A stretch of 64,000 nucleotides of DNA, taken from Patescibacteria group bacterium (GTDB taxonomy: Bacteria > Patescibacteriota > JABMPQ01 > JAHIRA01). A program made the translations under genes and the position numbers. The number at the start of each line of letters is the position of its first letter. The first letter of the stretch is position 1. This document shows positions 11,020 through 28,350 of the stretch, piece by piece. The stretch spans positions 10,600 to 74,599 of the forward strand of contig JAHISJ010000023.1 in assembly GCA_018818205.1 (NCBI GenBank). The letters run 5' to 3'. Under the pieces are notes generated by a model. That model worked only from the letters and a program-made list of their open reading frames with translations, was not told the origin of the DNA and ran no database searches.

Positions 11020-11020
11020 A

Positions 11021-11049: not shown

Positions 11050-11092
11050 TGATTTAGTTATTTGCACATTAGTTAGAATCAAAAGTACACAA

Positions 11093-11452: not shown

Positions 11453-11545
11453 ACGCATACATTTATATTTTAATGAGCACAGGATTCCTCTTGATGCTCT
11501 TTTTGTTATTGAAAAAATAAAAAGCATATGAGAAAGTAACATACA

Positions 11546-11621
11546 CGGGCTGTGGCGCAGTTGGTAGCGCGCACGCATGGGGTGCGTGAGGTCGTCGGTT
11601 CAAATCCGGTCAGCCCGACCA
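11546..11621 (+). tRNA. tRNA-Pro (anticodon GGG), CCA encoded
   Basis: Cloverleaf folded by hand. Acceptor CGGGCUG/CAGCCCG. D-stem GCGC. Anticodon stem CACGC/GCGUG with loop AUGGGGU. T-arm GUCGG-UUCAAAU-CCGGU. Discriminator A then CCA. Confidence 0.85.
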
Positions 11622-11677
11622 TGTACCAGAATAGGAATTTTCGTACATGGCAGGGCCATTTTATTTATAATCTCAAA

Positions 11678-11732
11678 CCCTGTACCGAATTCCTATCCTG
11701 GTACAGGGTGGGGCGCCGGTTTTCAATTTTTT
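11678..11732 (+). terminator. hairpin (CCCTGTACC-13 nt-GGTACAGGG) plus GGCGCC/T-rich tract downstream of tRNA-Pro(GGG). Overlaps a second 17-bp inverted repeat (11624-11640 / 11688-11704).
   Basis: Seen directly; nested alternative stems. Confidence 0.5.
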
Positions 11733-11826
11733 ATGAAGCAAAAAAGCCCTTGCAAAGCTGAACCAACGCTTATACACTGACGGTGAAGCGAGAACGGTGA
11801 ATTCTGCAAAAAATTAACGTAAGCAT

Positions 11827-12213
11827 ATGAGTAAGACTCCCCATAATACAAAAAAGATTTTGATTGTTGAGGATGAGATTTTTCTCTTAGACATTTTAGA
11901 AAAAAGACTCGAGCAAAAAGGCTTCACAGTGCTTAAAGCAGATGATGGTGAAAAAGGGCTTGAGTTTGCGTTACGTGAGCATCCGGACTTAATCCTCCTT
12001 GATATACTTATGCCTAAAATGGATGGTCTCGAGATGACAAAGAAACTACGAGAAGATGCATGGGGAAAAAATGCGCATGTAGTTGTACTTTCAAACTTAA
12101 ATGAAACAGGAACGAGAAGAGAGTTTGAGGAGCTTGGTATAGATGAATACTATGTGAAGTCTGATTGGAAACTGGAAGATATTGGGAAAAAGGCTGAGCA
12201 GTGGCTTGCCTAG
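11827..12213 (+). CDS. orphan response-regulator receiver domain (CheY-like, no output domain)
   Basis: KILIVEDEIFLLDIL..DLILLDILMPKMDGLEM..VVVLSNL: DD pair, phospho-Asp, conserved Thr/Ser and Lys positions. Confidence 0.8.
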   Translation: MSKTPHNTKKILIVEDEIFLLDILEKRLEQKGFTVLKADDGEKGLEFALREHPDLILLDILMPKMDGLEMTKKLREDAWGKNAHVVVLSNLNETGTRREFEELGIDEYYVKSDWKLEDIGKKAEQWLA

Positions 12214-12238
12214 AGTTTGTATGTTTTTCGTATCATAA

Positions 12239-12259
12239 AGCTGGACTATCCGGCTTTTT
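12239..12259 (+). terminator. intrinsic terminator after the receiver gene (AGCTGG-ACTAT-CCGGCT + T4)
   Basis: 6-bp stem with one G.U pair, followed by TTTT. Confidence 0.45.
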
Positions 12260-12299
12260 GTTTGAATCTAATACAATAATACGATAGAGTAATAATTGA

Positions 12300-12371
12300 C
12301 GGGATATAGCGCAGTGGTAGCGCGCATCGTTCGGGACGATGAGGTCGCCGGTTCAAATCCGGCTATCCCGA
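12300..12371 (+). tRNA. tRNA-Pro (anticodon CGG), CCA not encoded
   Basis: Acceptor CGGGAUA/UAUCCCG. D-stem GCGC. Anticodon stem CAUCG/CGAUG with loop UUCGGGA. T-arm GCCGG-UUCAAAU-CCGGC. Discriminator A. Confidence 0.85.
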
Positions 12372-12457
12372 TTAGTTAACGATAATAGTCTGTCTATCCA
12401 AGAAAAAAAACAGTTATGCGAGCTCCTTGATAGCGGTGTATTTCCTGAAAACGTTAG

Positions 12458-12492
12458 AGACCTATGTACATTGTATGTGTAGGTCTTTTTTG
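12458..12492 (+). terminator. intrinsic terminator downstream of tRNA-Pro(CGG) (AGACCTA-15 nt-TAGGTCT + T6)
   Basis: Perfect 7-bp stem and T-run. Confidence 0.5.
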
Positions 12493-12514
12493 TTTATATT
12501 CATATCTTCTTTAT

Positions 12515-12554
12515 GAAAATAAAAAAGCCCCGAGAATTTCAAAGAATTCAGGGG
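12515..12554 (-). terminator. minus-strand intrinsic terminator for the 13432->12588 operon (CCCC..GAATTy hairpin followed by U-run when read on the minus strand)
   Basis: Read on the minus strand: CCCCTGAATTCTTTGAAATTCTCGGGGC then TTTTTTATTTTC. Confidence 0.45.
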
Positions 12555-12587
12555 ACCAAGAACCTAAGAATCAAAAAAAACCTAGAA

Positions 12588-13088
12588 TCAAAATGGCACT
12601 TTTGAAGCAATCGCTTGCTTTGGGACAATCGAATGGTGAAAGAAGCATGAATTTTTTTTCTTATCTTCGAATGGTACTGTTTCTATTGTTATATGTTGAT
12701 TTGCTTGCAAGAATGTGTTAGCTATCATAAAGTGTTGTTGGGCTGAAGTAAATAAAAATGAGTACTCTCTTTCACAATTTACTGGGAAAAGTAGGGGTAG
12801 ATAGTTGTATAAAAATCGTAAAATCTGTGCTTGAGTTAAACAAAGCTTATCAAGATCCTCTTTGAAGCAGCTAAATCTAGTTGATTCATACCAGAAAATG
12901 CGTTCTAAGTAACAGACACAAACCTCAACTTCTAGTGTGTCTGGTACAAGGAATGAGAATAAAGGGTTTAATCTTCTATTAGGAAATAATCTCAAAAATA
13001 GGTTATGCACTGACACGTCCTTGCAAGCTGGTATGATAAATGGCTCTTTTGACGAGTCCCATATAATTGGAGTGGTAGTATCCTTCAT
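12588..13088 (-). CDS. hypothetical protein (166 aa, Phe/Leu/Cys-rich, no recognisable domain). Second gene of a two-gene antisense operon.
   Basis: ORF with a 4-nt ATGA overlap to the upstream gene. AT-rich (about 35 % GC by eye). Followed by its own terminator. Confidence 0.35.
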   Translation of the reverse strand: MKDTTTPIIWDSSKEPFIIPACKDVSVHNLFLRLFPNRRLNPLFSFLVPDTLEVEVCVCYLERIFWYESTRFSCFKEDLDKLCLTQAQILRFLYNYLPLLFPVNCEREYSFLFTSAQQHFMIANTFLQANQHITIETVPFEDKKKNSCFFHHSIVPKQAIASKVPF

Positions 13089-13432
13089 GTTCTCTCCTTT
13101 GCACTTATTCTGTTAAAAACGTCATGTGTTGCATTTAATGTTCCCCACTGTTCATCGTGAATCATGAGAACAATACTCACGTCGAATGGCTTATCTGACG
13201 TGAGTCTAATACGCCGACGCGTTAAGGTATGTGGTCCATTAAAACATTGCTGCTCTCTGCACGTGATAGCTTCTTCACTAAGAACTTCTCTTTGTGCATT
13301 TCCGTGCACATAGTAAGAAATTTCAGCAAGCAGAGATATGATTCCTTTTTTATCATGAAAAAAAGCTTCACACACTTCTAAAATGTAGCTTAGTACCACT
13401 GTTTTCACACTTTCCTCCTCATAGAAGATCAA
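13085..13432 (-). CDS. hypothetical protein (115 aa). First gene of the antisense operon next to the tRNA-Pro genes.
   Basis: ORF. Divergent promoter region 13433-13550 shared with the + strand FMN-reductase gene. No motif recognised. Confidence 0.4.
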   Translation of the reverse strand: MIFYEEESVKTVVLSYILEVCEAFFHDKKGIISLLAEISYYVHGNAQREVLSEEAITCREQQCFNGPHTLTRRRIRLTSDKPFDVSIVLMIHDEQWGTLNATHDVFNRISAKERT

Positions 13433-14850: not shown

Positions 14851-14878
14851 TTGTTATACATATCAAGAGACGTATAAT
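14851..14878 (+). promoter_or_regulatory. sigma70-like promoter for rpsL-rpsG (TTGTTA-16 nt-TATAAT)
   Basis: -35 at 14851-14856 and -10 at 14873-14878. The -10 lies about 30 nt upstream of the rpsL ATG. Confidence 0.5.
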
Positions 14879-14907
14879 TAATTTTCGTATAGTGTAAGTT
14901 ATTTTTT

Positions 14908-15333
14908 ATGCCTACGGTTAACCAACTGGTCAGAAAGAAGAGAAAGCAAGTAACCAAAAAGTCAAAAGCACCTGCACTTCAGAAGGTGTATAATAGTGTT
15001 ACTAAGCGATCAAAAACCCTTCCAAAGGGTAGCGCTTTTAAGCGTGGTGTCTGTGTTAAGGTTACGACGACAACGCCAAAAAAACCTAACTCAGCGCTCC
15101 GTAAAATTGCTCGTGTGCGGTTAACAAACGGTATTGAGGTGACTGCCTATATTCCGGGTGAAGGTCATAATCTACAGGAGCATTCAATCGTATTAATACG
15201 TGGTGGAAGAGTCAAAGATCTTCCTGGAGTGAAGTATCACATTGTGAGAGGTCCTCTTGATGCAGCAGGTGTAGACAACAGAAGGCAAGGACGCAGCAAA
15301 TACGGGGCAAAAATGCCCACCGGTAAAAAATAA
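14908..15333 (+). CDS. rpsL: 30S ribosomal protein S12
   Basis: [13 protein letters not shown].., [37 protein letters not shown]. Confidence 0.95.
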
Positions 15334-15350: not shown

Positions 15351-15821
15351 ATGTCAAGACGAGCAAGAGCGCCAAAGAAAAAAAGGATTCCAGATTACAA
15401 GTTTAAGAATGAACTTGTGGCAAAGTTTATCAACCACATCATGAAGGATGGTAAAAAAGGTGCAGCAGAGCGCGTGGTGTATGGATCTTTTGATATTATT
15501 TCAGAAAAAGCAAAAAAGGAACCTGTTGAGGTTTTTGATCAAGCATTAAGAAACGTCGGTCCGTCACTCGAAGTCAAGGGTAGAAGAATTGGTGGTGCAA
15601 ACTATCAAATTCCTTATGAAGTTCATGGCGACAGGCGAGACACGCTTGCTATGCGCTGGATTATTGAAGCGTGTAGAAGAAAAAAAGGTAAGCCTATGGC
15701 TGAGTTTCTTGCAACTGAACTGATCGATGCTTCTGAAAAGCAAGGTTCAGCATACAAAAAACGTGAAGATGTACAGAGAATGGCAGAAGCAAATAAAGCG
15801 TTTGCTCATTTTGCGAGATAA
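15351..15821 (+). CDS. rpsG: 30S ribosomal protein S7
   Basis: KFINHIMKDGKKGAAERVVY..EVKGRRIGGANYQIPYEV..AMRWII; immediately follows rpsL. Confidence 0.95.
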   Translation: MSRRARAPKKKRIPDYKFKNELVAKFINHIMKDGKKGAAERVVYGSFDIISEKAKKEPVEVFDQALRNVGPSLEVKGRRIGGANYQIPYEVHGDRRDTLAMRWIIEACRRKKGKPMAEFLATELIDASEKQGSAYKKREDVQRMAEANKAFAHFAR

Positions 15822-15839
15822 AAGTACAAATAAAATAGT

Positions 15840-16202
15840 ATGGAAAAGAGCTTAGTAAGATTTTTAGTAATGGTAGTAGCCATTGCTTTTTGTATTAGTG
15901 GTACCACTGTACATGCACAAGATGATACACTCGCAGGGCTTCTCGCTGTTGGTGGAATCAGCCTTGTATCAATCATATGGATGCTGTGGATGGGGTTTGT
16001 ATTTTTGATGATGCTTGTAAATATTGCAGGAATGGTTTTTTGGATTTTTATGATTATAGACGCGGCAAAAAGAAAGTATAAAACAGAAAATGACCAGTTA
16101 CTGTGGATTCTTGTGGTGGTACTCACTGGGTGGATAGGTGCGCTCATCTATTACTTTATGGTCAAAAGAAAAGAAGATAAGCTCAATGAAGACAACAAGT
16201 AG
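15840..16202 (+). CDS. small membrane protein with signal peptide and PLDc_N-like motif (WILVVVLTGWIGALIYYF)
   Basis: Signal peptide, then two TM helices. The W...P/G..G..YY motif resembles the cardiolipin-synthase N-terminal-domain (PLDc_N) family. Low certainty. Confidence 0.4.
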   Translation: MEKSLVRFLVMVVAIAFCISGTTVHAQDDTLAGLLAVGGISLVSIIWMLWMGFVFLMMLVNIAGMVFWIFMIIDAAKRKYKTENDQLLWILVVVLTGWIGALIYYFMVKRKEDKLNEDNK

Positions 16203-17397
16203 AGACACAAAAAATATATTCATTGTTTTTGCCCTTCTTTTGGTAGTTGGTCTCTCAACTACCTTTTATTTTGTATGGAGAAATAATAAAATCGACTCAT
16301 ATACAGAGCCGCAAGATATGGTAGAGATTGACAATATCAACATCGTTCCTGAAAGCTCACAAGGTAAGATTGGTGACTATCTTCCGACGCCAACTAAAGT
16401 ATTCATTAAAGAAGATCAATATATATTCCTCGGTACGATAAACGGAGAAACATATATTCAACTTCAAAAAAGAAAAAACGATGAGTTTGATATGAGTATA
16501 CTCATCCAAGATCCAAATATAACTAGTGCCGTCATTGACACATCAGATGAACACATATTGTATACAACCAGTAAATCAGAGAACAACCTAAGTGGAGGGC
16601 TTTACAATGTAACGCTCAAAACGCAAAAAAAAGAACTTATTGCTGAAAACGTAGCAGGCGTTCAAACATACAGTGATGCTTCATTTTCTAAAGATGGAAA
16701 CAGTCTTGCAGCATTGCAAGAAAAAGAAGGGACAAAAGAACTGGTATTGTATGATGTGAACAAAAAAGTGTTTCAACGAGTAAAGCATTCAGATGAGTTG
16801 CCACTTACGGTTTCTCAGTATGAGTGGCTTCTGGATAATAGTATTCTTTTAGTTGGATACGAGGATGAGAAGGGGAAAGTATACAGGCTACATGATGCAA
16901 GCAGCGATGGGTTTGCTGAAGAACTTTCCTTCAACCAGTTTTTTGCTGAAAACGAAACGCCGCTTCTTGCTAAGCAATCAGCAGATGGTGAGAAAATTGC
17001 AGTGCTGTTTGAGCGAGTAATAGATGAAAATAAAAAGGAGCTCGGGCTCGCCGTTTTTAGAGGTGATTCGTTTATGGAGAGGAAGGATATAGAGCTTCCT
17101 GAGGGAAAGCATGTTGAGTATGCATGGGGAGATGGTGCGGAGCTCTACGCAACACTGGGAACTGATTTTTACAAAATAGATACTACTGCTGAGGAGCTTG
17201 CATTGTCAGAGAAACCACTTGTAGAAAATAGGGGATACCTCTATGCAATTCTAGATGATGTATTTGTATTTAGAAAAACATATCAGTTTGAAGATGATAC
17301 CTTGACAAAACTCATCTTTTATGATAAACTGAGGGAAGATGAAGCAGCATATGAGACTGAATTCAATTCATATATTACCCTTTTAGATATAACCTAA
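16186..17397 (+). CDS. membrane-anchored protein with PD40/TolB-like beta-propeller repeats. Start placed at the Met just before the TM helix.
   Basis: TM IFIVFALLLVVGLSTTFYFVW. Repeated S-x-DG-x-x-hydrophobic motifs (SFSKDGNSLAAL, QSADGEKIAVLF, FLGTINGETYIQL). Confidence 0.45.
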   Translation: MKTTSRDTKNIFIVFALLLVVGLSTTFYFVWRNNKIDSYTEPQDMVEIDNINIVPESSQGKIGDYLPTPTKVFIKEDQYIFLGTINGETYIQLQKRKNDEFDMSILIQDPNITSAVIDTSDEHILYTTSKSENNLSGGLYNVTLKTQKKELIAENVAGVQTYSDASFSKDGNSLAALQEKEGTKELVLYDVNKKVFQRVKHSDELPLTVSQYEWLLDNSILLVGYEDEKGKVYRLHDASSDGFAEELSFNQFFAENETPLLAKQSADGEKIAVLFERVIDENKKELGLAVFRGDSFMERKDIELPEGKHVEYAWGDGAELYATLGTDFYKIDTTAEELALSEKPLVENRGYLYAILDDVFVFRKTYQFEDDTLTKLIFYDKLREDEAAYETEFNSYITLLDIT

Positions 17398-17402
17398 AAA
17401 TT

Positions 17403-19400
17403 ATGCAAGAGTTACAACAGCAACCCCCAAGTTCTGAGCGTGAACAGCCAATCGATCCTGAGGATGATTTTGAAGAGCTCACGGTAGAAGACGTGCTCCC
17501 GGATATGTCCTCTGAAGCGGGTGCTGCAATTTTTATGGAAGAATTAAAACAAAGAATCGAGGAGGATGAATATGAAGCGGCAAAGCTTATCGAGGAAGCC
17601 ATGGCTGGTATTAATGAGGGGTACAGTCCAGATGACCCTGGGAAAAGTGAGAGACCGCTTAAAGAAGTATATGATGAGTACACAAAACTACAAAAGGCTT
17701 TAAAAGAAGCGGGAGTGTCCGTGGAACTTGATTTTGATTCAGGAGGTGAAGATCGAGCACGTGCCAACATTCTTCCTTCTCTTGCACGTACAATAAACGT
17801 TGAACTGGGAAGTTTAGAGATATATCTGGAAGAAGAAGCAACTATGGATTTTAAACAATTCCAGGAAGATTTTGTTCCTTTAATGCAAGAATCTAATACT
17901 CTTCGTGCAGAGGGTGAGAAGGCAAGGCCGGATCAAGTTAAATCGTTTATTAACAAAACAAAAGCAAAATATACTCAGTGGAGAAACGCAGTAAACAGCA
18001 TGCCGGAAGGACAAAAACGTGGCGAGCTTCTTATGGAAATTGGCCATTTAAACTCGCTGGCTCAAGAAATGGAGATGTTTGCAGATTCACTCGTGGTTTT
18101 GGAAGAAACAGATGTTGACAATCAGCGTTCTGCCGGTAAACAAGAAGGTCAGAGAGATATTGGAGCTGAACAAGAAAGAAATAAAGCGCTTGTAGATCGT
18201 CAAAAGAATATTGCTGGAGGTATCGTTGAAACTGTGCAACAGATTGAAAGGCTGGAAGATGTTATTAAAATCGAAGAAGAAAAAGAAAATCCTGACAAAA
18301 CGCATTTGACTACTTTGCGTGGCGATCTTCGTATTCAACAAATTAGGATGAGTCAGGGTGAGCAGCAAATGTTCAATGCAGAGTTCGATTTTGCGTCAGA
18401 AGATGATAAAGAAAATTTGCGAGAAGATCTCAAAGAAGAGCTTGCAGAACAAGTGGATCTGTCGCGTGAGATTTTTCATAATGCACTTATTGTTACCGGA
18501 GATAAGAAAAATTTTTCAACTAAAGAACTGAGTAAACATATTGCGGTTCTTTCTGAATCAGTAAACGCGTTAAATCATGATGAGTCTCGTCTAAATATTC
18601 GTGGGATGGTCACGGTAGATAAAAAGAATACGGCGCAAATTCTTAAAGCAGAGCGAGAAATACAGCGTATGGCTATGCAGCTTGAGGAACGATTGAATCT
18701 TAGAGAAGAGAACAAAAAGCTTTTGGAAAGAGAGGAGGAACTCATTCCAAAAGAATACAAAGAACAACAGCTCGCGGAAGTGATAGATCTGTCAGAAAGG
18801 ATAGAACAAAAGGTGAGAGATACATATGGTGAAGATGAACGATTAGATTCACTGATACGGCATGAGATCAACAAGATAGATATGGATGCGCATTTTAAGT
18901 CAAAGGAATTGGAAAAAGAGGTTGCTGTGCTACAAGCGGAATTTCAAAAATATGAAGATTTTATGGAAGATGGAGACATTAAGCTTGATATGAACAATTT
19001 ATTTTCAAACAATACATTCACAGCAACTCGTGAAAGGATTAGGTTTTGGAGGAAGATTGGAAAATTAGAACCAGAACCAGAAACTGAAAGTAAAGCTGTT
19101 GAGAAAACAGAGGAAACAGCGCCAGAGACTGAAAGTGATGTTGGCGAGGAAACCGAGGAAACAATATCAGAAACTGAAAGTGAGGTTGGTGAGGAAACCG
19201 AGGAAACAGCGCCAGAACCTGAAAGTTACAGAGAGTTTTCTGGCCTATCTGTAGATGAATTTGCCACTCGTTTAATTGCTGCTGAAAGTGAAATGTACGC
19301 AAAAAAAACTGAGCTCGAAAAACTCAATCTAGCGCGCGATTTCTGGAAAATACAGTATAGAGGAGTGGGTGATAGAAGAAAGACGAAAAAAGCCGCATAA
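17403..19400 (+). CDS. large acidic coiled-coil protein (665 aa) with C-terminal ETEE tandem repeats. Unknown function.
   Basis: Glu/Lys-rich with heptad-like segments. No P-loop or catalytic motif seen. DNA-level 45-bp tandem repeat at 19076-19226. Confidence 0.5.
   Translation: MQELQQQPPSSEREQPIDPEDDFEELTVEDVLPDMSSEAGAAIFMEELKQRIEEDEYEAAKLIEEAMAGINEGYSPDDPGKSERPLKEVYDEYTKLQKALKEAGVSVELDFDSGGEDRARANILPSLARTINVELGSLEIYLEEEATMDFKQFQEDFVPLMQESNTLRAEGEKARPDQVKSFINKTKAKYTQWRNAVNSMPEGQKRGELLMEIGHLNSLAQEMEMFADSLVVLEETDVDNQRSAGKQEGQRDIGAEQERNKALVDRQKNIAGGIVETVQQIERLEDVIKIEEEKENPDKTHLTTLRGDLRIQQIRMSQGEQQMFNAEFDFASEDDKENLREDLKEELAEQVDLSREIFHNALIVTGDKKNFSTKELSKHIAVLSESVNALNHDESRLNIRGMVTVDKKNTAQILKAEREIQRMAMQLEERLNLREENKKLLEREEELIPKEYKEQQLAEVIDLSERIEQKVRDTYGEDERLDSLIRHEINKIDMDAHFKSKELEKEVAVLQAEFQKYEDFMEDGDIKLDMNNLFSNNTFTATRERIRFWRKIGKLEPEPETESKAVEKTEETAPETESDVGEETEETISETESEVGEETEETAPEPESYREFSGLSVDEFATRLIAAESEMYAKKTELEKLNLARDFWKIQYRGVGDRRKTKKAA
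19076..19226 (+). repeat. intragenic 45-bp tandem repeat (about 3 copies) encoding ET(A/I)(P/S)ETES(D/E)VGEETE
   Basis: Units beginning near 19112, 19157 and 19202 are nearly identical at the DNA level. Confidence 0.7.
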
Positions 19401-19415
19401 AACAAAAAAGCAGAG

Positions 19416-19886
19416 TTATTGTTTAAACATCTCTGCTATAAGTTCTTGGTCAGCACCTTCTTTAACAAAAAATGGTCCAATGCGTTCTAATGTGCCATTG
19501 CGTAAGGTCCTTAACAAGTATATAAATTGTTTCCAATTACCGTGAAGTATAATGATTATTCCTCCTTTTCCATCTGATTCACGTTCGCAAATAAGATGTA
19601 ATGCCTGATCAGCTCTTGGGATAATATCAACACAATTACTAATACTTCTTGGTGACACAGCACCCATAACTGCTTGTAAGTGGAGAACCCCATTTTCAAA
19701 GTCTTCTATGACTATGAAATGGTTCCAGAAGAGATGATCATTTTTTTCAATTCTTATACGTTCCAATGTGTGGTCTTCGGGGGTTGAATTATCTTTCATC
19801 ATGAAGATGTAGTCGCAGATGAAGAAGCCAATGGCAGTACCAATTTTTTTAATGAGTGTATTAATATGATTGAAAAACTTTTTCAT
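19416..19886 (-). CDS. hypothetical protein (about 156 aa). Start set at ATG 19886, preceded by GGGAGG.
   Basis: Strong SD (rc of cctccc at 19891-19896) 6 nt before ATG. No domain recognised. Confidence 0.4.
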   Translation of the reverse strand: MKKFFNHINTLIKKIGTAIGFFICDYIFMMKDNSTPEDHTLERIRIEKNDHLFWNHFIVIEDFENGVLHLQAVMGAVSPRSISNCVDIIPRADQALHLICERESDGKGGIIIILHGNWKQFIYLLRTLRNGTLERIGPFFVKEGADQELIAEMFKQ

Positions 19887-20009
19887 TTTTCCTCCCAAAA
19901 AATGTGTACATTGTAACAATCGATTATACCCCAAAATATTCGCACGGTCAATAGTTCCTCTCTATCCAAAAGAATGGTACAATGACGTTATAACATAGTT
20001 TCAAAAAAT

Positions 20010-22175
20010 ATGGTTGAACAGCAATCAAAAAAAGAACAAAAAGCCCCTTCAAACGAAGCGTTTGCCGATCTTATTGAAAGCAATCCTCGTTTTTCAGAAG
20101 GAAAAGATGATGAGCAAGTGCAGTTTATCATTGAGGCTCTAGACATGGTTTCAGATGATGTCCTTTCACCAAAAGAGGGGCAAGAACCAAAGAGCCCCGC
20201 GGAAGTACTCGCAGCGTATCAGCTCATTTTTAATAAGGTGGTAGAGAGTCCACAGCATGAAGCGTTTTTGAGTAGCGGGATCTCTGGAAATGCAGTCTAT
20301 CAAATTAAAGAGGCTCCACCTCATTATGCCAAAGCACTCCAATCACTTGAAGATAGAATAGAAGATCAAAGGAGACTTATGATTGCGCTTAGAACCGGTC
20401 AAGATTCCTCAGAATATGACAAAACCACAGCAACGCATAATCTAAAAGTGATTGTTAAAAACCTACGTACCCGAGCACATGCCAAGCAGCCTAAAGATCG
20501 TATACAAGCAGATTCTTACGAGGTTGTGCTTGAACGTGAATTAGTAGCGAAACAGTTGGAAGATGCGGGGTATGTAGAGGCTCTAGATGATTCACTCTCC
20601 GTGAATGTACAAAAGTCACCATATGAGTATACTGTTCCCGTCGCTGAGTTAAACGATCTTCGCCTGGAAGAAGAGATTTTGGAGACGGCTGAAAGTAGGC
20701 AAAAAAAGACTACAACTGATGAGGAGTGGGACTTAGTTATGGATAATGCTGAGGCGGTGAAAAGAAAAGAGAAACTGCAAGAAAAGAGTGATGAACTTAA
20801 GACTGAGGGCCTTTCTGAGAATGAGCAAAAACAGTTAGAATCTGAAACTCGATATCTTGAGTATCTTATGGCACTCGAGGACGCGCGAGTAGAAGGAAAC
20901 AAGACACGAGTGCTTGCCCGTAAGTATGAAGCGAAGCGTGCTCCAATAAGATTTGAAGCGGATACGCGAATGGCCCGGCGTAAAGAAGCGGAAGAGGAAG
21001 TTCACAAAGTTATCCCCGGCAAGCAAGCTGAGAGAGAAGACTTTGGAGGAGAAGAAGCGGATGCCGAGAAAAAAAAGCGAGAAGCTGAGAGTGATGAAAC
21101 ACTAACAATGCAGAGCCAGGATGCGTTAAAGCCAATCCGGGAACATGTAGAAGGTGTGTATTCACGTGCAGAAAAATTTGCGCTGGCAACGGAGCACTTG
21201 ATTAATCAGGGTATGTATGAGGAGGTAACGTTTACTGAAGATGTACCCATGTTAGATAGAGAAGGAAATAGTGTTTTGGGAGCGGAGGGTAAAGAACTTA
21301 CCAAGCAGGAAAAAAGAGTGGAGCAAGCATATAAAGTTGAGCTAACCCCAGATGAAATTAAAACAATGATTGATTCATTGTCAAGACTCAGGGAGCGCAT
21401 GGTAAATGAGAAGGTGCGGGCAGAAGCGGGACTGGAATCATCAGTAGGTATTGTCGAACTTAATTCAGCGTATACCTTTGCAACAATGAATTTGGAGACA
21501 TCTCTTGGGAGAGTTGAGTCTCGACTCAAAAACCTACGACAAGAACTTGGAGCTTTAGAAGAAATCAAAAAGCTTGAATCAGGTGAGAAGGCGCTAGCCT
21601 ACGTACATCCAGAAATTTACCGGGAACTTCACGGCAAAGTAGAACGGCTTGTAAATTTTGATGAACTAAAAGAACATTTTGCTGAGCGTCATGCAGAATT
21701 AGCAAAGCGACTGGGCAAAAAATCACTTGAATCGTTTGGCGATGCATTCATTTTTGAAGAAGTGAAAAAGGATTTACTTAAAGAATCCAGAGAGCTCAAG
21801 CATGAGCTTGGAAGGATGCATATGGAAGTAGGAAGTTTAGAAAATGATAATAATGATGTTGATGATGAGTTACAATCATATGGAATTCAAGATGAGCCAG
21901 GATTACTCATAAACGTGTGGAGAAGATTCACAAAAGCCGATAAAGGAAGGAAGGAAACGCTTGCTCAAAAAAGAGAGGCTTTGCTTAAAGTAAAGCAAAA
22001 AAATACAGAAAAAATAAACATGATACGTTCACAAGCAGGTGAAGTTGCAGAAAAGGTAGCAATAAATATTGTAACGAGAACCGTAATAGAAGAAAAACTG
22101 AAGGTGCTCAAAGCCACAGGTGAGAGAAGTGAACAACGTAAACTGGGCAGTCTCTTTAAGCCAATAGAAGCCTAA
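20010..22175 (+). CDS. large acidic coiled-coil protein (721 aa). Unknown function.
   Basis: Glu/Lys/Arg-rich helical sequence. No NTP-binding or catalytic motifs recognised. Confidence 0.5.
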   Translation: MVEQQSKKEQKAPSNEAFADLIESNPRFSEGKDDEQVQFIIEALDMVSDDVLSPKEGQEPKSPAEVLAAYQLIFNKVVESPQHEAFLSSGISGNAVYQIKEAPPHYAKALQSLEDRIEDQRRLMIALRTGQDSSEYDKTTATHNLKVIVKNLRTRAHAKQPKDRIQADSYEVVLERELVAKQLEDAGYVEALDDSLSVNVQKSPYEYTVPVAELNDLRLEEEILETAESRQKKTTTDEEWDLVMDNAEAVKRKEKLQEKSDELKTEGLSENEQKQLESETRYLEYLMALEDARVEGNKTRVLARKYEAKRAPIRFEADTRMARRKEAEEEVHKVIPGKQAEREDFGGEEADAEKKKREAESDETLTMQSQDALKPIREHVEGVYSRAEKFALATEHLINQGMYEEVTFTEDVPMLDREGNSVLGAEGKELTKQEKRVEQAYKVELTPDEIKTMIDSLSRLRERMVNEKVRAEAGLESSVGIVELNSAYTFATMNLETSLGRVESRLKNLRQELGALEEIKKLESGEKALAYVHPEIYRELHGKVERLVNFDELKEHFAERHAELAKRLGKKSLESFGDAFIFEEVKKDLLKESRELKHELGRMHMEVGSLENDNNDVDDELQSYGIQDEPGLLINVWRRFTKADKGRKETLAQKREALLKVKQKNTEKINMIRSQAGEVAEKVAINIVTRTVIEEKLKVLKATGERSEQRKLGSLFKPIEA

Positions 22176-22201
22176 AAACAAACAAAAAAAGCGCTTAGAA
22201 T

Positions 22202-22756
22202 TCATTCTAGCGCTTCATTAACGAGGTCATCGAGCTCAACTCGAGTACCGTTTTTAATATCAAAAACAATTTTTTCAGGAACGTATTTTTCTGACCCAAT
22301 AAGCATCAAAAGGTCTCTTGGAGGCTTTTTTATGATATGAAGTTTCAGTAGCACCTCATTTTGAGGATCTAGCGAAAGCATATAATCTGTATCTTTGGGT
22401 GGAAGTGCTTCAAAAAAGACGTTTATTGGACTTAAAAGATCCCCACCTCCAAATTGTAACAAGTGGATAGCGCTAAGTGGGCTTTGTACTACGCCCCCTT
22501 GATTTGATGAAAGTCGTAAAATAACATACCCATCACTATCATTGCCGGCATACTTAATGACGCAATGTTGAAAGAAGATGATCGATAATGCCTTTCTTTC
22601 TTCCTTAGAAAAATAAGGTTTAATCCACCAGGGTTTAAAAAAACCAATGGTGCGTGCAATCCAGAGCCAGATCTTCCAAAGAATCCGGTTCCTTTTCATA
22701 ATTTTGTTCCAATTCTGAAATGAATCGGTGTAGTGTTTTGGCATTTCAGCCATCAT
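22202..22756 (-). CDS. hypothetical protein (184 aa) with a Trp-rich amphipathic N-terminus. Possibly a membrane-associated PH-like protein.
   Basis: ORF convergent with the 721-aa gene. An imperfect palindrome at 22186-22213 may be a bidirectional terminator. Confidence 0.4.
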   Translation of the reverse strand: MMAEMPKHYTDSFQNWNKIMKRNRILWKIWLWIARTIGFFKPWWIKPYFSKEERKALSIIFFQHCVIKYAGNDSDGYVILRLSSNQGGVVQSPLSAIHLLQFGGGDLLSPINVFFEALPPKDTDYMLSLDPQNEVLLKLHIIKKPPRDLLMLIGSEKYVPEKIVFDIKNGTRVELDDLVNEALE

Positions 22757-22841
22757 TCCTCCTAATGCAATTTTCAGCTTGTAACTATACCGTTTTTTTG
22801 GTATTGTGTCTAGAGCAATTTACAAAAAGTAATATAAGTCT

Positions 22842-23534
22842 ATGAATGCTAAAGTATGGATTGTCATTATTATTGCAGTCGTGCTTGCAGGTGCACTGTG
22901 TGGTTCTGCTGTCTATTTCTGGCAGGGCAATACATGTCGGGTAGAAAAAAATGAGCTTATAGGTCAAATGCAAGATCTAAATGCTGATGTTCACGCATGT
23001 GAAAAAGAGATAGATGAGGTAGCGATGATTCCAAAGAAAATGGATGATGTAAAAGTAGATGAACCAGCCTACAAAGACATTACGGTTATGGGTGGCTATA
23101 CCGCAGAGGTCCCAGACACCTGGAGCGTAACCACTATTAGTGAGAGTATAGGCGAGAATTCTCTCCCTGACTTACCTACTCAGGCAATCAGTCCTAGCGA
23201 TGTAAGTTTTGGTGATATTCATGCCGGTCAAGTTGACTTTTTCTACGCGCAAAATGACATTGTAGATACATTAATAGAAGAAGAGAAGAATCAAGACGAC
23301 TCAGTAAAAACGACGTGGACTACAGAAGACATTGCTGGGTTTGAAGCGCAGGTTGTTGAATATGACCCCAACTCGGACATAAAAGGTGCTGGGAGTAAAA
23401 AATATTTTGTTACATTAGATGGCGTTGATGTTTCTGGGTTTGATGTTAAAACTATGATGATGTATGTTCATGGAGATGATGATCCAGAATATCAAGCTGA
23501 GCTAGAAAAGTTTTTTCAAAGCATTACCAAATAG
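22842..23534 (+). CDS. N-terminally membrane-anchored acidic protein (230 aa). Unknown function.
   Basis: TM WIVIIIAVVLAGALCGSAVYFW followed by an acidic soluble domain. Confidence 0.45.
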   Translation: MNAKVWIVIIIAVVLAGALCGSAVYFWQGNTCRVEKNELIGQMQDLNADVHACEKEIDEVAMIPKKMDDVKVDEPAYKDITVMGGYTAEVPDTWSVTTISESIGENSLPDLPTQAISPSDVSFGDIHAGQVDFFYAQNDIVDTLIEEEKNQDDSVKTTWTTEDIAGFEAQVVEYDPNSDIKGAGSKKYFVTLDGVDVSGFDVKTMMMYVHGDDDPEYQAELEKFFQSITK

Positions 23535-23680
23535 CACAGCGTTCTTGCTGATATTTAGGGAGTAGCTTTCCACTTGTCTGTTTTGGTGAGTCATGTTTTA
23601 ATGTAAGAAACAAACTTGCGTATGCGCAAGGTATGTTTGGATTACTTATTATATTTAAATACAATTTGAGGATCAAATAA

Positions 23681-25771
23681 ATGCCTAGAGAGTATTCACT
23701 AGAGAAAACCAGAAATATTGGAATTATCGCACACATCGATGCCGGTAAAACTACCGTAACCGAGCGTATTTTGTTCTACACGGGGATTTCACATAAAATT
23801 GGTGAGGTCCATGAGGGTGAAGCAGTTATGGACTGGATGGAGCAGGAACGTGAGAGAGGAATCACTATCACCTCAGCTGCAACAACGTGTTTTTGGAAGG
23901 ATCATAGAATCAATATTATTGATACCCCCGGACATGTTGACTTTACCGTAGAAGTTGAGCGGTCACTTCGTGTACTCGATGGCGGTGTGGTGGTTTTTGA
24001 TGGTGTCGCAGGCGTTGAACCGCAGTCAGAAACGGTATGGCATCAGGCCGATAAATACAAGGTTCCTCGTATTTGTTTTATCAATAAAATGGACAGAACC
24101 GGCGCCGATTTTTTTGCAGCGCTTGATTCTATTCATGAGAGACTTTCAAAAAGTGCAGTACCGATTCAGCTTCCCATTGGCGCAGAAGATCAGTTTGGTG
24201 GGGTGATTGACCTTATCAATGAGAAGAAATTGGTTTTTGAGGGGGAAATGGGTGCGATAATAAAAGAAGAAGAAGTCCCGGAAGACATGAAGGATCAAGT
24301 AAAAGAGTACCGGGACAAAATGGTAGAAAAGATTGTTGAGCAAGATGAAGCACTCATGGAGAAGTATCTTGAAGGAACTGAGGTAACACCAGAGGAGCTT
24401 ATAGAAGCACTAAGAAAAGGCGTTCTCTCGCTTGATATTATTCCTGTTATGTGCGGAACTGCGCTTAAAAATCAAGGTGTTCAACCGGTTTTGGATATGG
24501 TTATTAAACTGTTGCCGTCCCCGCTCGATGTACCTCCAGTTAAGGGCGAAGATCCAAAAGATCCGGAAAAAGAACTTGAGAGAAAAGCAGATGATAACGA
24601 GCCATTCGCTGGCCTCGCGTTTAAGGTTGCATCCGATCCATATGTGGGCAAACTTGTCTTCTTTAGAGTCTACTCAGGCATGCTTTCCTCTGGATCATAT
24701 GTTCTAAACAGCGCTACCGGAAACAAAGAGCGTGTTGGAAGAATCGTACGTATGCATGCAGATAAAAGAGAAGAAGTGACAGAAATGTACGCGGGTGATA
24801 TTGCAGCAATCGTAGGGCTTAAAGACACTACAACCGGTGACACATTATGTGATCAGGATAGTCCAATAATTCTTGAAAAAATAACCTTTCCAGAACCCGT
24901 TATCTCTATTGCCATTGAGCCAAAAACTAAAGCGGATCAAGAAAAGATGGGTAACGCGCTCAAAACACTTTCAGAAGAGGATCCAACATTTAGGGTCAGG
25001 TCAGATGAAGAGACTGGACAAACAATCATTGCCGGTATGGGAGAACTCCATCTGGATATCATTGTTGACAGAATGAGCAGAGAGTTTAAAGTTGAAGCAA
25101 ATATCGGAAAGCCTCAGGTTGCTTACAGAGAAACAATAAAGAAAAGTTCAGAAGCGGAAGGAAAGTACATCAAGCAGTCCGGTGGTCGTGGGCAATATGG
25201 CCATGTGTGGCTGAGAGTTGAGCCAAATGAGGTCGGTAAAGGATTTGAATTTGGAAATGAGATAAAAGGTGGTGCAATCCCACAGGAGTTTATTCCTCCG
25301 GTCGAGAAGGGTGTTAGAGAAACACTAGATAACGGTGTTCTCGCTGGGTATCCACTCGTAGACATCAAGGCAACGCTTTTTGATGGTTCGTTCCATGATG
25401 TTGACTCGTCCGAGGCAGCATTTAAAATCGCCGGTTCCATGGCGCTTAAAGCAGGCTGTCTTAAAGCAGATCCTGTTATACTCGAGCCGGTTATGAAAGT
25501 CGAGGTATTAACCCCAGAAACGTACATGGGTGATATCGTTGGCGACTTAAACTCCAAGCGCGCAAAAATTGACGAGATGACTGACAGAGGTCAAATGAAG
25601 GTCGTTAAGTGTATGGTGCCGCTTGCATCAATGTTTGGATATGCAACGTCACTCAGATCTATGACCCAAGGCCGTGGAAGCTATATCATGGAGTTTGATC
25701 ATTATGAAGAGGTGCCAAAGAACGTCGCAAAAGAGATCATCGAAGTTAAAACCGGCGTAGCTGCAAAATAA
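23681..25771 (+). CDS. fusA: translation elongation factor G
   Basis: G1 [10 protein letters not shown]3 [13 protein letters not shown]. 696 aa; domains II-V recognisable. Confidence 0.95.
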
Positions 25772-25785: not shown

Positions 25786-25820
25786 TACGTAGGGGCGCCC
25801 CTTGTGGGCGCCCTTTTTTT
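25786..25820 (+). terminator. fusA terminator formed by copy 1 of a GC-rich palindrome (TACGTAGGGGCGCCCCTTGTGGGCGCCC + T7)
   Basis: 9-bp GC stem, 5-nt loop, TTTTTTT. Related copies at 26881-26917 and 30351-30380. Confidence 0.7.
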
Positions 25821-25880: not shown

Positions 25881-26315
25881 TCAATCTTTCTCAAACATCT
25901 CCAAAAACTCCACATACCCCTCTTTCTCCAAATCCTCTTTAGAAATAAATCGCAAAGCTGCAGAATTAACACAATAGCGCTTACCGTCTGGTTCTGGCCC
26001 ATCATCAAATACATGCCCCAAATGCGAGGCACCTTTTTTACTTTTCACTTCTGTTCGCTCCATACCGAGCTTCGTATCTTTTTTTTCGATAGCACATTCG
26101 CTACTTACCGTCTGAGAAAAACTGGGCCAACCGGTTCCAGAATCAAACTTATCTTTTGAACTAAATAATGGTTCACCGGTAGCCACATCAACATAAATAC
26201 CTTCTTGCTTGTTGTCCCAGTATTCATTGTTAAATGCAGGCTCCGTGCCTTCTTCCTGTGTCACTGAGTATTGGAGGGGAGTCAACTTCTTTCTTAAATC
26301 TTTTTTGTCATTCAT
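25881..26315 (-). CDS. msrB: peptide methionine (R)-S-oxide reductase MsrB
   Basis: GTGWPSF; the catalytic [11 protein letters not shown]; [10 protein letters not shown]. Confidence 0.9.
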
Positions 26316-26832
26316 GGCTTTTAATATATTCCTCTCTCCCTGATCCTTTTTTATATGCTAAATAGTGCTCTTGCCTCTTTTTGTAGTAATCTTGATGTTC
26401 TTCCTCAGCTTCATAAAACGGTTTTTCGGGAAGAATCTTTGTGACAATCGGACTATCATATTTACTTGAGCGTTCTAAATCGGCTTTAGATTCTTTTGCA
26501 TACTTTTTTTGTTCATCGTCAGTGTAAAAGATTACCGTCTCATACTGCGAGCCTCTATCAGCAAATTGCCCTCCTTTGTCAGTCGGATTAATGTTTCCCC
26601 AAAAACGATTCAGTAGTTCAGGATACATTATAACTTCTGGGTCGTAGATCACTTTAGTTGCTTCAATATGCCCGGTAGTTCCAGTGGAAACTTCTTCATA
26701 CGTTGGATTTTCTGTATTGCCACCGGTATACCCATTTATAGCTTCAATAACGCCATCAAGCTCTTCCATAGCGGCTTCAATACACCAAAAGCAGCCTCCG
26801 GCGAAGATTGCGTGTTTGTAGTTGTCTTTCAT
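26308..26832 (-). CDS. msrA: peptide methionine (S)-S-oxide reductase MsrA
   Basis: N-terminal [14 protein letters not shown] (GCFWG/C active site); [22 protein letters not shown]. Confidence 0.9.
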
Positions 26833-26880
26833 GTAACAATTTTACCATATCTACACGTACATGCATATTTGCACAAAACA

Positions 26881-26917
26881 CCACGTAGGGGCGCCCCTTG
26901 TGGGCGCCCCTACGTGG
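26881..26917. repeat. GC-rich perfect palindrome, copy 2 (CCACGTAGGGGCGCCCC-TTG-T-GGGCGCCCCTACGTGG)
   Basis: 16-bp arms. Located about 50 bp upstream of the msrA start, in an otherwise AT-rich intergenic region. Confidence 0.8.
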
Positions 26918-26967
26918 GGATGTTGTAGGCACAGTATAATAATGCTTTTTGATAAATATTTTTAACT

Positions 26968-26996
26968 GTCATCCCCGTGGAGGCGGGGATCCATCT
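26968..26996. repeat. left 29-bp terminal inverted repeat (GTCATCCCCGTGGAGGCGGGGATCCATCT). Itself contains a 7-bp hairpin.
   Basis: 28/29 match to the reverse complement of 28322-28350. Confidence 0.75.
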
Positions 26997-27096
26997 GCTT
27001 GTTGTGAATATTGGTGGTTTGACAGTACGATGTAAAATAGATATACTTACGTAGCAAAATTACATAAAAAACAAAAATAAGCAGCGCTGGCGCTGT

Positions 27097-28308
27097 TTGT
27101 TTTATTTGATACTAATAATGAACAAAACACGCGAAACATTTGGAGAAATTCTAATTATTTTAAGCTCAGCTTTAGTAGGATTGTCTTTTCAAGAAAATAA
27201 AATCCTTGCCATCTTTTTTTTGATTGCATTGATTTTTGGTTTATATTTGAAGGTCTTTTATAACAAAATAAATACATGCTTAGCTTCTCTTCGAAGGAGA
27301 ACAGACAAATCAATTGTTGTTGGAATCTTGAATGAAATTGATTGGAGCGAATTTAGTAAATTTGGAAGAAGCTGGTCTCCTTATTCCTATGAAGATTGGA
27401 AGGAAGGATTTGAAAGAAGGAATACAATTGTAAAACCGATTAACAAAATAACAGCTTTTCGTCTTAATCGTTGTGATATAGTTTTAAATCCATATAGTGG
27501 CGTATACCCCGAAAGTGATGCAGAATCATTGGAGAGCTTACATCTATTTTTTGATTATGTCTCTCGTGGTGGTGTATTTGTGAACGTTGGTGATATTCCC
27601 GGATATTATGAATACAGCAAACCCCTATATAAACCATACAATTCAGTGCTTATGCAAAATGGAAGATACGAAGTTAATCATGCTCCGTTTGTAAATAATT
27701 TAAAGATTAGAGTCCATCTTGTGGGCGAGAACGATCAATTTATAGTGCCTAGAGATAGTAATGACTATGAAGTAGAGCGATATATTGTGGTAAAAGAGGG
27801 AAAAGAACAGCAGGATTGTATTAGTGAAAACTATATCCCATGGGGGGAAGGTTGTTATGAAAGAAAAAAATATGATTTAGGTGTAAAAGAATTTCCTGAA
27901 GGAGAATATTCTTCTTGTTTTAGAAAAAAATATGGAGAGGGTTCTTTTATTATTTCATTAATGCATATGGGAAAAGCAGAACAAAAAGATGATGAGGATG
28001 CCAAAGATAAGCATCCAAACAAAAGTGTAAAAAATATTCTTATTATAAATGCCATTAGGAGTGTTATATCAAAAGAAAAAAATTTCTTTGGTAGTATTTA
28101 TCGTTATATTAAAGGTAAGATTAGTATTATATTTAAACATATAGGTATAGTCTCATTTTTTGGCAAGATGGCTTTTTTAGTAGTGATTACATGGCTCATT
28201 ATAGTAACATTTGTATTATTTTATTTTAGGTTTTATCAGTGTCCATATCAAAAAAATGGCAAAGAAAACAATTATTATATTGATTCAGTCACAATCAAGA
28301 TCAGGTAA
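27097..28308 (+). CDS. hypothetical membrane protein (403 aa), very AT-rich codon usage (K/N/I/Y/F-rich). N- and C-terminal TM segments flank a Tyr/Glu-rich soluble domain.
   Basis: ORF. TM helices ILIILSSALVGL, AIFFLIALIFGLYL, FLVVITWLIIVTFVLFYF. No catalytic motif recognised. Confidence 0.45.
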   Translation: MFYLILIMNKTRETFGEILIILSSALVGLSFQENKILAIFFLIALIFGLYLKVFYNKINTCLASLRRRTDKSIVVGILNEIDWSEFSKFGRSWSPYSYEDWKEGFERRNTIVKPINKITAFRLNRCDIVLNPYSGVYPESDAESLESLHLFFDYVSRGGVFVNVGDIPGYYEYSKPLYKPYNSVLMQNGRYEVNHAPFVNNLKIRVHLVGENDQFIVPRDSNDYEVERYIVVKEGKEQQDCISENYIPWGEGCYERKKYDLGVKEFPEGEYSSCFRKKYGEGSFIISLMHMGKAEQKDDEDAKDKHPNKSVKNILIINAIRSVISKEKNFFGSIYRYIKGKISIIFKHIGIVSFFGKMAFLVVITWLIIVTFVLFYFRFYQCPYQKNGKENNYYIDSVTIKIR

Positions 28309-28321
28309 TTTTGATTTGAGA

Positions 28322-28350
28322 AGATGGATCCCCGCCTCCACAGGGATGAC
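28322..28350. repeat. right 29-bp terminal inverted repeat (AGATGGATCCCCGCCTCCACAGGGATGAC)
   Basis: Reverse complement equals the left repeat with one mismatch. Confidence 0.75.

Follow-up and report, generated by a model that had tools for sequence, protein, structure and literature searches.

A seven-gene block between rpsG and fusA splits the str operon of a Patescibacteria group bacterium

In Escherichia coli and most bacteria, the str operon carries rpsL, rpsG, fusA and tufA in direct succession. A related kind of interruption is reported for Gammaproteobacteria, where multigene insertions separate whole concatenated transcription and translation operons (PMC6735719). Here we describe a 64,000-nucleotide stretch from a Patescibacteria group bacterium (contig JAHISJ010000023.1 of assembly GCA_018818205.1; hereafter the window, to which all coordinates refer unless a relative is named), in which seven genes, here called the block, lie between rpsG and fusA. 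The locus retains the flanking genes of the canonical operon, their order, the rpsL–rpsG adjacency and a promoter-like site upstream, but it carries 7.7 kb and seven genes between rpsG and fusA, 4.8 kb between fusA and tuf, and a conserved putative promoter and leader of fusA’s own. rpsL, rpsG, fusA and tuf do not form the contiguous, co-directional run of the canonical operon in the window.

We consider the block to be a clade-specific, vertically inherited gene module that a small, uncultivated lineage of Patescibacteria assembled stepwise between rpsG and fusA, a reading to which we assign a probability of roughly 0.6. Similarly to the gammaproteobacterial insertions, lineage-specific genes would have lodged in a conserved translation-gene array and then been inherited vertically; the present case differs from the reported ones in lying inside one operon, in its stepwise growth and in the new promoter of the downstream gene. 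The event is of a known kind, an evolutionary curiosity that is no new mechanism by itself. Literature searches found no description of such an rpsG–fusA block arrangement.

The genes from rpsL to tuf are arranged as follows (aa, amino acids; pI, isoelectric point; ORF, open reading frame):
14908–15333, plus strand: rpsL (Pfam Ribosom_S12_S23, 7e-38)
15351–15821, plus strand: rpsG (Pfam Ribosomal_S7, 4e-60), 17 bp from rpsL
15840–16202, plus strand: o120, 120 aa, PF13396 match, three hydrophobic segments; starts 18 nt past the rpsG stop
16186–17397, plus strand: o419, membrane-anchored and propeller-like; 403 aa when started at the ATG that NCBI and Logan chose, 419 aa from a GTG at 16138
17403–19400, plus strand: o665, helix-rich and predicted cytoplasmic, pI 4.56; starts 5 nt after o419
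19416–19886, minus strand: o172, 156 aa from the ATG at 19886 (172 aa from a TTG at 19934), GGAGG 5 nt 5′ of the ATG
20010–22175, plus strand: o721, helix-rich and predicted cytoplasmic, pI 5.16, conserved core at about residues 431–540
22202–22756, minus strand: o184, coding by its score, AGGAGG before the ATG; 180 aa in the NCBI version
22842–23534, plus strand: o230, pI 4.12, membrane helix at residues 5–23 as N-terminal anchor
23681–25771, plus strand: fusA (seven EF-G Pfam domains)
25881–30249, both strands: second interruption of the str genes, with msrB (minus), msrA (minus), o403 (plus) and o590 (minus); Pfam SelR and PMSR for the msr genes
30613–31803: tuf (EF-Tu Pfam domains)

A first-pass annotation of this DNA had placed seven ORFs between the end of rpsG at 15821 and the start of fusA at 23681, and both the coordinates and the coding status hold. 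The codon-usage log-likelihood of each ORF is positive in its own frame only (0.06–0.23 per codon, with the other five frames at −0.2 to −0.8), and NCBI annotates all seven, each as hypothetical (KKH43_03970 to KKH43_04000, MBU1119010-16), on a 318-kb contig. A Logan assembly of SRR6514274, a sample that may be shared with the NCBI genome, gives the identical arrangement with 100% protein identity. We therefore find, from the own-frame coding, the separate assembly and the NCBI annotation, that the block is real. The source is a metagenome-assembled genome, and one gene call in a relative, a “197-aa” ORF, proved spurious; a chimeric contig or spurious ORFs nevertheless deserve next to no credence here, since the sequence is identical in two assemblies, the architecture recurs in relatives sampled elsewhere and every ORF codes in its own frame alone. 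Shine–Dalgarno sequences are not recognisable for rpsL, o120, o665, o721 and o230 (e.g., in 14880–14907, 15822–15839 and 17398–17402), while o172, o184 and fusA have clear GGAGG/GAGGA sites (19887–19900, 22757–22770 and 23660–23680).

The gap from rpsG to fusA measures 7.86 kb and that from fusA to tuf 4.84 kb, with genes on both strands inside. As a baseline, we gathered 76 comparison genomes among the matches listed for an S7 probe in a GTDB genome scan, with best S7 identities of 56–62% and no close relative among them. Their rpsG–fusA gap has a median of 35.5 bp and is at most 300 bp in 72 of the 76, in line with the first-pass statement that rpsL, rpsG and fusA are nearly always contiguous in other bacteria. 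Three of the four gaps above 300 bp belong to other Patescibacteria, one of them with glmM (Paceibacterota) and the other two of 430 and 505 bp; only two fusA–tuf gaps exceed 400 bp, both again in Patescibacteria. The split str operon is rare overall, yet recurrent in the Patescibacteria superphylum, with different inserts each time. In the window, the assumption that fusA and tuf are contiguous had to be dropped, as msrB, msrA and two ORFs without a family match lie in 25881–30249.

The inserts of these other Patescibacteria (genomes are given by handles such as L066) are glmM at 6571–8019 of L066 (Paceibacterota), a 116-aa membrane ORF at 9197–9547 between rpsG and fusA together with a 3-kb insert at 11780–14745 in L056 (Taylorbacteria), and str gaps of 0.5–1.2 kb in two Saccharibacteria (L004, 10435–10940; L074, 12626–13870). 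The membrane ORF of L056 was considered as a PLDc_N protein and rejected by Pfam.

Such cases raise the main rival to our reading, namely that the rpsG–fusA junction is a permissive site at which unrelated, weakly constrained orphan genes pile up without forming a complex or a module. That other Patescibacteria break the same junctions with unrelated genes (glmM in L066; L056 and L004; 1.2–3 kb between fusA and tuf in L056 and L074) speaks for this explanation, as do the extreme sequence divergence of the block and a tail that varies among relatives (a methyltransferase, a 326–365-aa acidic protein, o230 versus the 205-aa protein of L171). The seven ORFs of the window, however, have intact frames and native codon usage, and the first three genes keep their order, orientation and tight coupling in seven genomes despite propeller identities of only 22–28%. 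Gene order conserved to such a degree is usually read as selection on an operon. We therefore regard the permissive site as unlikely, though it is the alternative that we take most seriously.

The block in related genomes

The nearest genomes were found with EF-G, and their gene contexts were then read. The intermediate stages of the junction are visible in these living relatives as no insert, one gene, three genes and seven genes. In L088 (74% EF-G identity), rpsG and fusA are contiguous, 25 bp apart. In L086, L087, L089, L091 and L102 (70–80% EF-G identity), a PLDc_N gene is the sole gene between them; fusA follows it after 15–18 bp in L086 and L087 and lies 70–190 bp past the PLDc_N match in L089, L091 and L102. 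Across these more distant relatives, the distance from the PLDc_N gene to fusA is given as 15–75 bp. The order rpsG, methyltransferase in some genomes, PLDc_N, propeller and long helical protein is found in L084, L169 together with L083, L171, L172, L173, L174 and L090. In L084, rpsG is followed by genes for a DOT1-like methyltransferase, PLDc_N, a propeller of 401 aa, a protein of 584 aa, a minus-strand product of 159 aa and a protein of 628 aa, and then by fusA. L171 repeats the seven-gene strand pattern of the window, with products of 113, 419, 493, 142 (minus strand), 593, 150 (minus strand) and 205 aa.

The core of the block thus stands behind rpsG in six or more related genomes that come from different samples, one of which, L171, shows the whole pattern. 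The trio of PLDc_N, propeller and long helical gene keeps its order, orientation and spacing (overlap or a gap of at most 68 bp) in seven genomes and follows rpsG in all examined. The coupling of the plus-strand trio that had been noticed in the window (a 17-nt overlap, then a 5-nt gap) is real. With the same genes in the same order, native composition and neither flanking repeats nor mobility genes, the proposal of an old lineage-specific module is supported.

A neighbour-joining (NJ) tree of EF-G groups the four block carriers that have a full-length EF-G into a single clade, and the PLDc_N-only genomes fall outside. The PLDc_N-only and insert-free relatives suggest stepwise accretion. The block is layered and not a single insertion: the PLDc_N gene is older, the trio forms the core, and the tail varies.

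Divergence is steep along the locus. Between the window and L084, identity amounts to 83% for EF-Tu, 81% for S12, 80% for EF-G and 72% for S7, then 51% for PLDc_N and 27% for the propeller, and the long helical proteins are barely alignable, near the detection limit. Among block-bearing genomes in general, propeller identity reaches only the 22–28% given above.

These comparisons also bear on recent horizontal transfer, which the first-pass annotation had left as its alternative and under which the block would be a genomic island, a prophage remnant or transposon cargo within the str operon. The alternating strands do look island-like, and a word-indexed search of 5.8 billion proteins with o721 retrieved no homologue but o721. 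However, the third-position GC content (GC3) of the seven ORFs is 0.31–0.40, the same range as for rpsL, rpsG, fusA and tuf, the GC level is flat along the region, and codon usage is native; no direct or inverted repeats bound the block; there is no integrase, transposase or adjacent tRNA, the nearest tRNAs lying 3.5 kb upstream; and the phage-related searches returned two sub-threshold PHROG matches only (E 0.002–0.006), no PADLOC match and no phage-genome match. In addition, at least six related genomes have orthologous blocks at this very site, although identity among their housekeeping proteins is only 70–83%. Recent acquisition is thus very improbable. For anti-phage defence or toxin–antitoxin models, PADLOC and Pfam gave no match with any of the seven proteins.

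The DOT1-like methyltransferase is a membrane-anchored protein of about 185 aa encoded between rpsG and PLDc_N (L084, 3543–4094; L172, 759–1310; L171, 1090–1653); it is absent from the window, L169, L173 and L174. Behind the block of L171, the stretch 8667–13275 encodes a 73-aa coiled-coil ORF, a 600-aa AlaRS-like protein (tRNA-synt_2c and tRNA_SAD) and an FtsA-like protein.

Products of the block

The product of o120 matches Pfam PF13396 (PLDc_N) at residues 66–106 with 27.5 bits against a gathering cut-off of 23.3, as the description of a PLDc_N-like small membrane protein had anticipated. Its predicted topology combines an N-terminal signal-like segment with a pair of hydrophobic helices at 55–73 and 90–108. 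Orthologues with 39–59% identity over the aligned part occur in L084, L086, L087, L089, L090, L091, L102, L169, L171 and L172, placed right after rpsG or after the intervening methyltransferase gene, and a PLDc_N gene also follows rpsG in L173 and L174. Residues W89, L91, V92, V93, W98, G100, A101, Y104 and Y105 are invariant in four orthologues, and conservation of A32, G33 and W47 leads us to favour the 120-aa form over the 73-aa NCBI call. With its score above the Pfam threshold and its C-terminal helix motif W-x-L-V-V-x-L-x-x-W-x-G-A-x-I-Y-Y, o120 resembles stand-alone PLDc_N proteins and the N-terminal part of cardiolipin synthase; points of difference are an extra N-terminal signal-like segment, the fixed site after rpsG and the lack of a catalytic PLD domain. 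Among the matches listed in a metagenome scan, 4 of 80 PLDc_N loci stand in a str context, and the site behind rpsG is therefore clade-specific as far as the searches reach. We know of no function for stand-alone PLDc_N members.

The start of o419 overlaps the o120 stop by 17 nt. Its product is predicted to begin with a single membrane helix, from which a disordered linker leads to an all-beta domain on the extracytoplasmic side. An AlphaFold2 model built from eight sequences, including seven relatives, reaches pLDDT 77.7 and pTM 0.74, with a helix at 6–37 and 28 strands at 78–402. The best Foldseek matches of this model in the PDB are TolB (1c5k, E 1e-9, TM 0.43; over all TolB entries E 1e-9 to 1e-8 and TM 0.40–0.45) and the propellers of S9 peptidases, which gives the model a beta-propeller fold, though with TM scores of only 0.40–0.45. 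Structure prediction thereby upholds two parts of the earlier label “membrane-anchored PD40 propeller”, the anchor helix and the propeller fold. The Pfam PD40 assignment falls away, as PF07676 gave no match at E up to 1 and only faint matches to other propeller families appeared; SPDG-like PD40 motifs are visible in the alignment by our own reading.

The comparison with TolB of the Tol–Pal system is instructive in both directions. o419 resembles TolB in its best structural matches, the SPDG-like motifs and the predicted extracytoplasmic location. It differs in having an uncleaved N-terminal membrane helix and a disordered linker instead of a signal peptide, in lacking the TolB N-terminal domain, and in its 28 strands, which suggest seven blades against six in the TolB propeller. 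The TolB equivalog model TIGR02800 of NCBIfam gives 18 bits against a cut-off of 343, and tolQ, tolR, tolA and pal do not adjoin o419 in the window or its counterparts in seven relatives, the rest of the window not having been scanned gene by gene for tol.

An exhaustive HMMER search of 1.84 billion representative proteins returned only seven full-length relatives of the propeller, and the five that were looked up (L169, L171, L172, L173 and L174) all have rpsG and PLDc_N on one side and a long helical protein on the other. In the word-indexed search, o419 had found no match, as a 51-aa fragment stands for its 90% cluster, a problem that the exhaustive search solved. A terminator-like hairpin inside the 5′ coding part of o419 (16242–16263) recurs only in L169, where the peptide is also similar, and was set aside as a by-product of coding.

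The two long proteins, o665 and o721, have no predicted membrane helix and no match in Pfam, NCBIfam, PADLOC or the PDB, and a profile of the helical family also found nothing in the PDB. o665 gave one sub-threshold PHROG match of unknown function (E 0.0056), and a single-sequence AF2 model of o721 is almost all helix, with long helices, at low confidence (pLDDT 49), too poor for a fold search. Earlier described as acidic coiled-coil proteins, they are indeed acidic; the coiled-coil part stands only partly, as a crude home-made test finds about 13% of either sequence heptad-consistent, some 2 standard deviations above shuffles and in two segments of about 45 residues each. With so low a share, “acidic helical” is the safer term. 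At 19068–19226, o665 contains three copies of a 45-nt tandem repeat (77–83% identical) that encodes the 15-residue acidic unit E-T-E-S-x-V-G-E-E-T-E-E-T-x-P.

Intermediate-filament-like bacterial proteins are acidic, helix-rich and cytoplasmic, diverge rapidly and carry no enzymatic domain. o665 and o721 share these traits with the coiled-coil-rich proteins crescentin, FilP and Ccrp, and depart from them in the low heptad share found by our crude test and in the empty Pfam and PDB searches.

A hidden Markov model (HMM) of six relatives gives o721 26.5 bits, while none of 1000 shuffles exceeds −0.2, which places it in the helical family, and BLASTP finds L172_634 and L174_421p at about 7e-4. 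o665 takes the position of the first long helical protein of the relatives. Against its positional orthologues, o665 scores 11.3 bits with one HMM versus at most 5.5 in 2000 shuffles and gives no signal with two other HMMs, and with its family membership marginal we therefore treat it as a positional orthologue whose homology is unproven. Within the family, L084_584 is linked to L171_493 at 3e-10 and L173_597 to L172_634 at 2e-19; L171_493 and L171_593 match each other at 2e-8, and since both lie in one block they are paralogues. Direct BLASTP showed no paralogy between o665 and o721, o172 and o184, or o419 and o230, and the paralogy of the long proteins emerged only via the relatives’ sequences. 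Judged by these comparisons, the two long proteins are members of one diverged family, firmly for o721 and marginally for o665.

The two small antisense ORFs proposed in the window are genes of their own by own-frame coding score, Shine–Dalgarno sequence and NCBI annotation. Their putative transcription signals are:
19923–19951, minus strand: promoter-like site of o172, TTGACC-17-TATAAT, 11 of 12 positions, the best match in 17 kb scanned
19398–19437, minus strand: o172 terminator, a 7-bp stem followed by UUUUUUGUUUU on the minus strand, RNAfold −12.2 kcal/mol, with no U-run on the plus strand
22784–22812, minus strand: promoter-like site of o184, TAGACA-17-TATAGT, 10 of 12 positions in a consensus scan
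22189–22215, minus strand: o184 terminator, a stem with one bulge followed by UUUUUUUGUUUGUUUUU on the minus strand, RNAfold −13.0 kcal/mol

The hairpin terminators reported between the alternating-strand genes can accordingly be retained for the minus-strand genes only, where a U-run follows, and not for the plus strand. Counterparts of o172 with similar size and the same orientation occur in L084 (159 aa) and L171 (142 aa), as positional matches with no sequence homology shown. The counterpart of o184 in L171 is a 150-aa minus-strand protein with weak support in a leave-one-out HMM test (9 of 1000 shuffles). Over the small antisense proteins as a whole, such tests placed one clearly above shuffles, three weakly and four not. 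Three of them have an N-terminal “IGFF” motif in common, which we do not count as proof of homology. In L172, the plus-strand “197-aa” ORF was rejected as a gene-caller error; the real gene is the minus-strand ORF, homologous to one upstream of fusA in L085.

The last protein, o230, was correctly described as membrane-anchored and acidic, with its helix at 5–23 and pI of 4.12. It has no family or PDB match past a curated cut-off; sub-threshold matches cover the N-terminal helix only (Pfam LapA_dom, E 0.07; a PHROG Rz-like spanin, E 0.002), and PDB matches stay at E of about 1. At its position, L171 has an unrelated anchored 205-aa protein and L084 has nothing. o230 belongs to the variable tail of the block.

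The predicted topology, with a membrane protein, an anchored propeller and cytoplasmic helical proteins, suggests an envelope-associated complex. The trio most likely would form a membrane-spanning envelope complex in which o120 is the integral membrane component, the propeller binds a ligand or surface outside the cytoplasm, and the helical protein serves as scaffold on the cytoplasmic side. Of the envelope or cell-division role suggested in the first-pass annotation, the envelope half agrees with the TolB-like propeller model and with the topology predicted for three of the seven products, and the cell-division half is without support. Expression of the trio, which evolves very fast, would follow the growth rate by way of the promoter of the ribosomal-protein genes. 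A more specific proposal is that the trio builds a previously undescribed envelope-spanning apparatus of this clade, such as a host-contact or a shape and division structure, whose amount follows ribosome synthesis via the rpsL promoter. We hold this proposal as doubtful; if it were true, the proteins would evolve fast because the partner they meet, for instance the surface of a host, keeps changing.

Alternatively, the helical proteins or the whole trio could be lineage-specific ribosome-associated or membrane-targeting factors with a role in translation. The site behind rpsL–rpsG shows strict conservation, the gaps are short and no terminator is convincing, and the L171 block stays with rpsG though fusA is not adjacent, all of which would suit such factors. 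In contrast, three of the seven products are predicted to be membrane or extracytoplasmic proteins, none resembles ribosomal or translation-factor families, and the block proteins are acidic and fast-evolving where ribosome-binding proteins are usually conserved and basic. A translation role is consequently improbable.

The block thus marks three or four protein families that lack annotation and keep strictly to rpsG in an uncultivated clade, and they are reasonable targets for work on the Patescibacteria envelope and host interface.

The fusA promoter and the order of events

The putative signals upstream of rpsL and fusA are:
14851–14878, plus strand: candidate rpsL promoter, TTGTTA-16-TATAAT, 10 of 12 positions in a consensus scan, 30 nt 5′ of the rpsL ATG; the match alone is no functional proof
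23573–23602, plus strand: fusA promoter of the extended −10 type, CTTGTCT-N15-TG-T-TTTAAT, a motif of conserved spacing
23615–23630, plus strand: fusA leader hairpin, CTTGCG-TATG-CGCAAG, close to where the fusA transcript is predicted to begin

The motif CTTG[CT/A]NN-N15-TGNTT[AT]AAT lies 64–78 nt 5′ of the fusA ATG in the window, L083, L084, L085, L172 and L173, which are all the block-bearing genomes with a recovered fusA upstream region. It is a conserved, fixed-spacing element in otherwise diverged DNA, at 67–78 nt in five aligned genomes; in the sixth, L173, it lies 64 nt before the ATG and has an A at the [CT] position. The motif is absent 5′ of fusA where fusA is coupled to rpsG or to PLDc_N as the sole insert. 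Relaxed, it matches four times in the 64-kb window against 0.76 expected.

In five of these six genomes (window, L084, L085, L172 and L173), a hairpin of 5–6 bp follows the −10 box at an equal distance, and the stem sequence of the window differs. The small hairpin at 23615–23630 was found again, and the notion that fusA regains its own leader is backed by the promoter conserved in six genomes. RNAalifold returned no consensus structure for the fusA leaders, a consequence of a poor alignment in which MAFFT misaligned L083. From these elements we infer that fusA would be a separate transcription unit with a hairpin at the 5′ end of its mRNA. Since six genomes share this putative fusA promoter, the operon probably falls into two transcription units, which would be rpsL–rpsG–PLDc_N–propeller–helical protein on the one hand and fusA on the other.

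Comparison of the relatives suggests the following order of events. The oldest insert, as this comparison shows, is the small PLDc_N membrane gene, fixed directly after rpsG. The TolB-like propeller gene and an acidic helical gene were then added behind PLDc_N in one sub-clade, as the compared gene orders also show. The long helical gene would next have been duplicated, with small antisense genes carrying their own signals between the copies and a variable anchored exoprotein at the end, a step that the comparison documents in part. Finally, fusA would have come to lie beyond simple read-through, where the extended −10 promoter and the leader hairpin, conserved in sequence and position, may provide for its expression. 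The locus thus shows a highly conserved str operon opened from inside, with the essential fusA apparently rescued by a new promoter.

Several observations weigh against the reading of a vertically inherited, stepwise-built module. The block of L171 has no fusA behind it within the 5 kb available. The EF-G NJ tree carries no support values, and the insert-free L088 sits beside the block clade, which implies either loss of PLDc_N or an error of the tree. The promoter motif is derived from the same alignment that was used to show its conservation. Co-transcription of the block with rpsL–rpsG and use of the fusA promoter are predictions from sequence, as are the functions and interactions of the products. 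Homology among the small antisense proteins is not established by the sequence comparisons, and the assignment of o665 to the helical family is marginal.

Neighbouring features

The fusA–tuf junction differs in content among relatives, with a 116–118-aa acidic protein in L086 and L087, three tandem proteins of HTH_3 repeats in L085, a 558-aa minus-strand gene in L084 and nothing in L102. In the window, fusA is followed by this signal:
25791–25815, plus strand: GC-rich fusA terminator, 10 pairs of which 8 are GC, then a T-run

This palindrome and a second GC-rich one at 26881–26917 share the core GGGGCGCCC and flank the msrB–msrA pair. The second is 37 nt long and near-perfect and lies in the divergent region upstream of msrA. 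Counting one-mismatch variants, the core occurs 12 times in the window against 2.4 expected.

Two further ORFs separate msrA from tuf. The 403-aa ORF at 27097–28308 (plus strand) has the lowest GC of the region (0.305, GC3 0.23), and its product carries a hydrophobic helix at either end; neither a family match nor a counterpart in the relatives turned up, and the ORF may be of foreign origin. The 590-aa ORF at 28477–30249 (minus strand) has a signal peptide, a pI of 10.1, a duplicated N-terminal region and a beta-rich-looking C-terminus ending in ...YTF, and it matches no Pfam or NCBIfam family. An ending of this type recalls outer-membrane barrel proteins and is odd for a Patescibacterium. 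The 558-aa gene of L084 has the same position and orientation and weak similarity (E 0.001).

Upstream of the region, by 3.5 kb, the window carries two tRNA-Pro genes at 11546–11621 and 12300–12371 (anticodons GGG and CGG). Just upstream of M50–rpsL, L086 (1–5316) and L087 (1–5559) encode a phytoene synthase, an amine-oxidase-type desaturase, UbiA and a photolyase, joined in L087 by a tocopherol-cyclase-like protein; genes of this kind are unusual for Patescibacteria.

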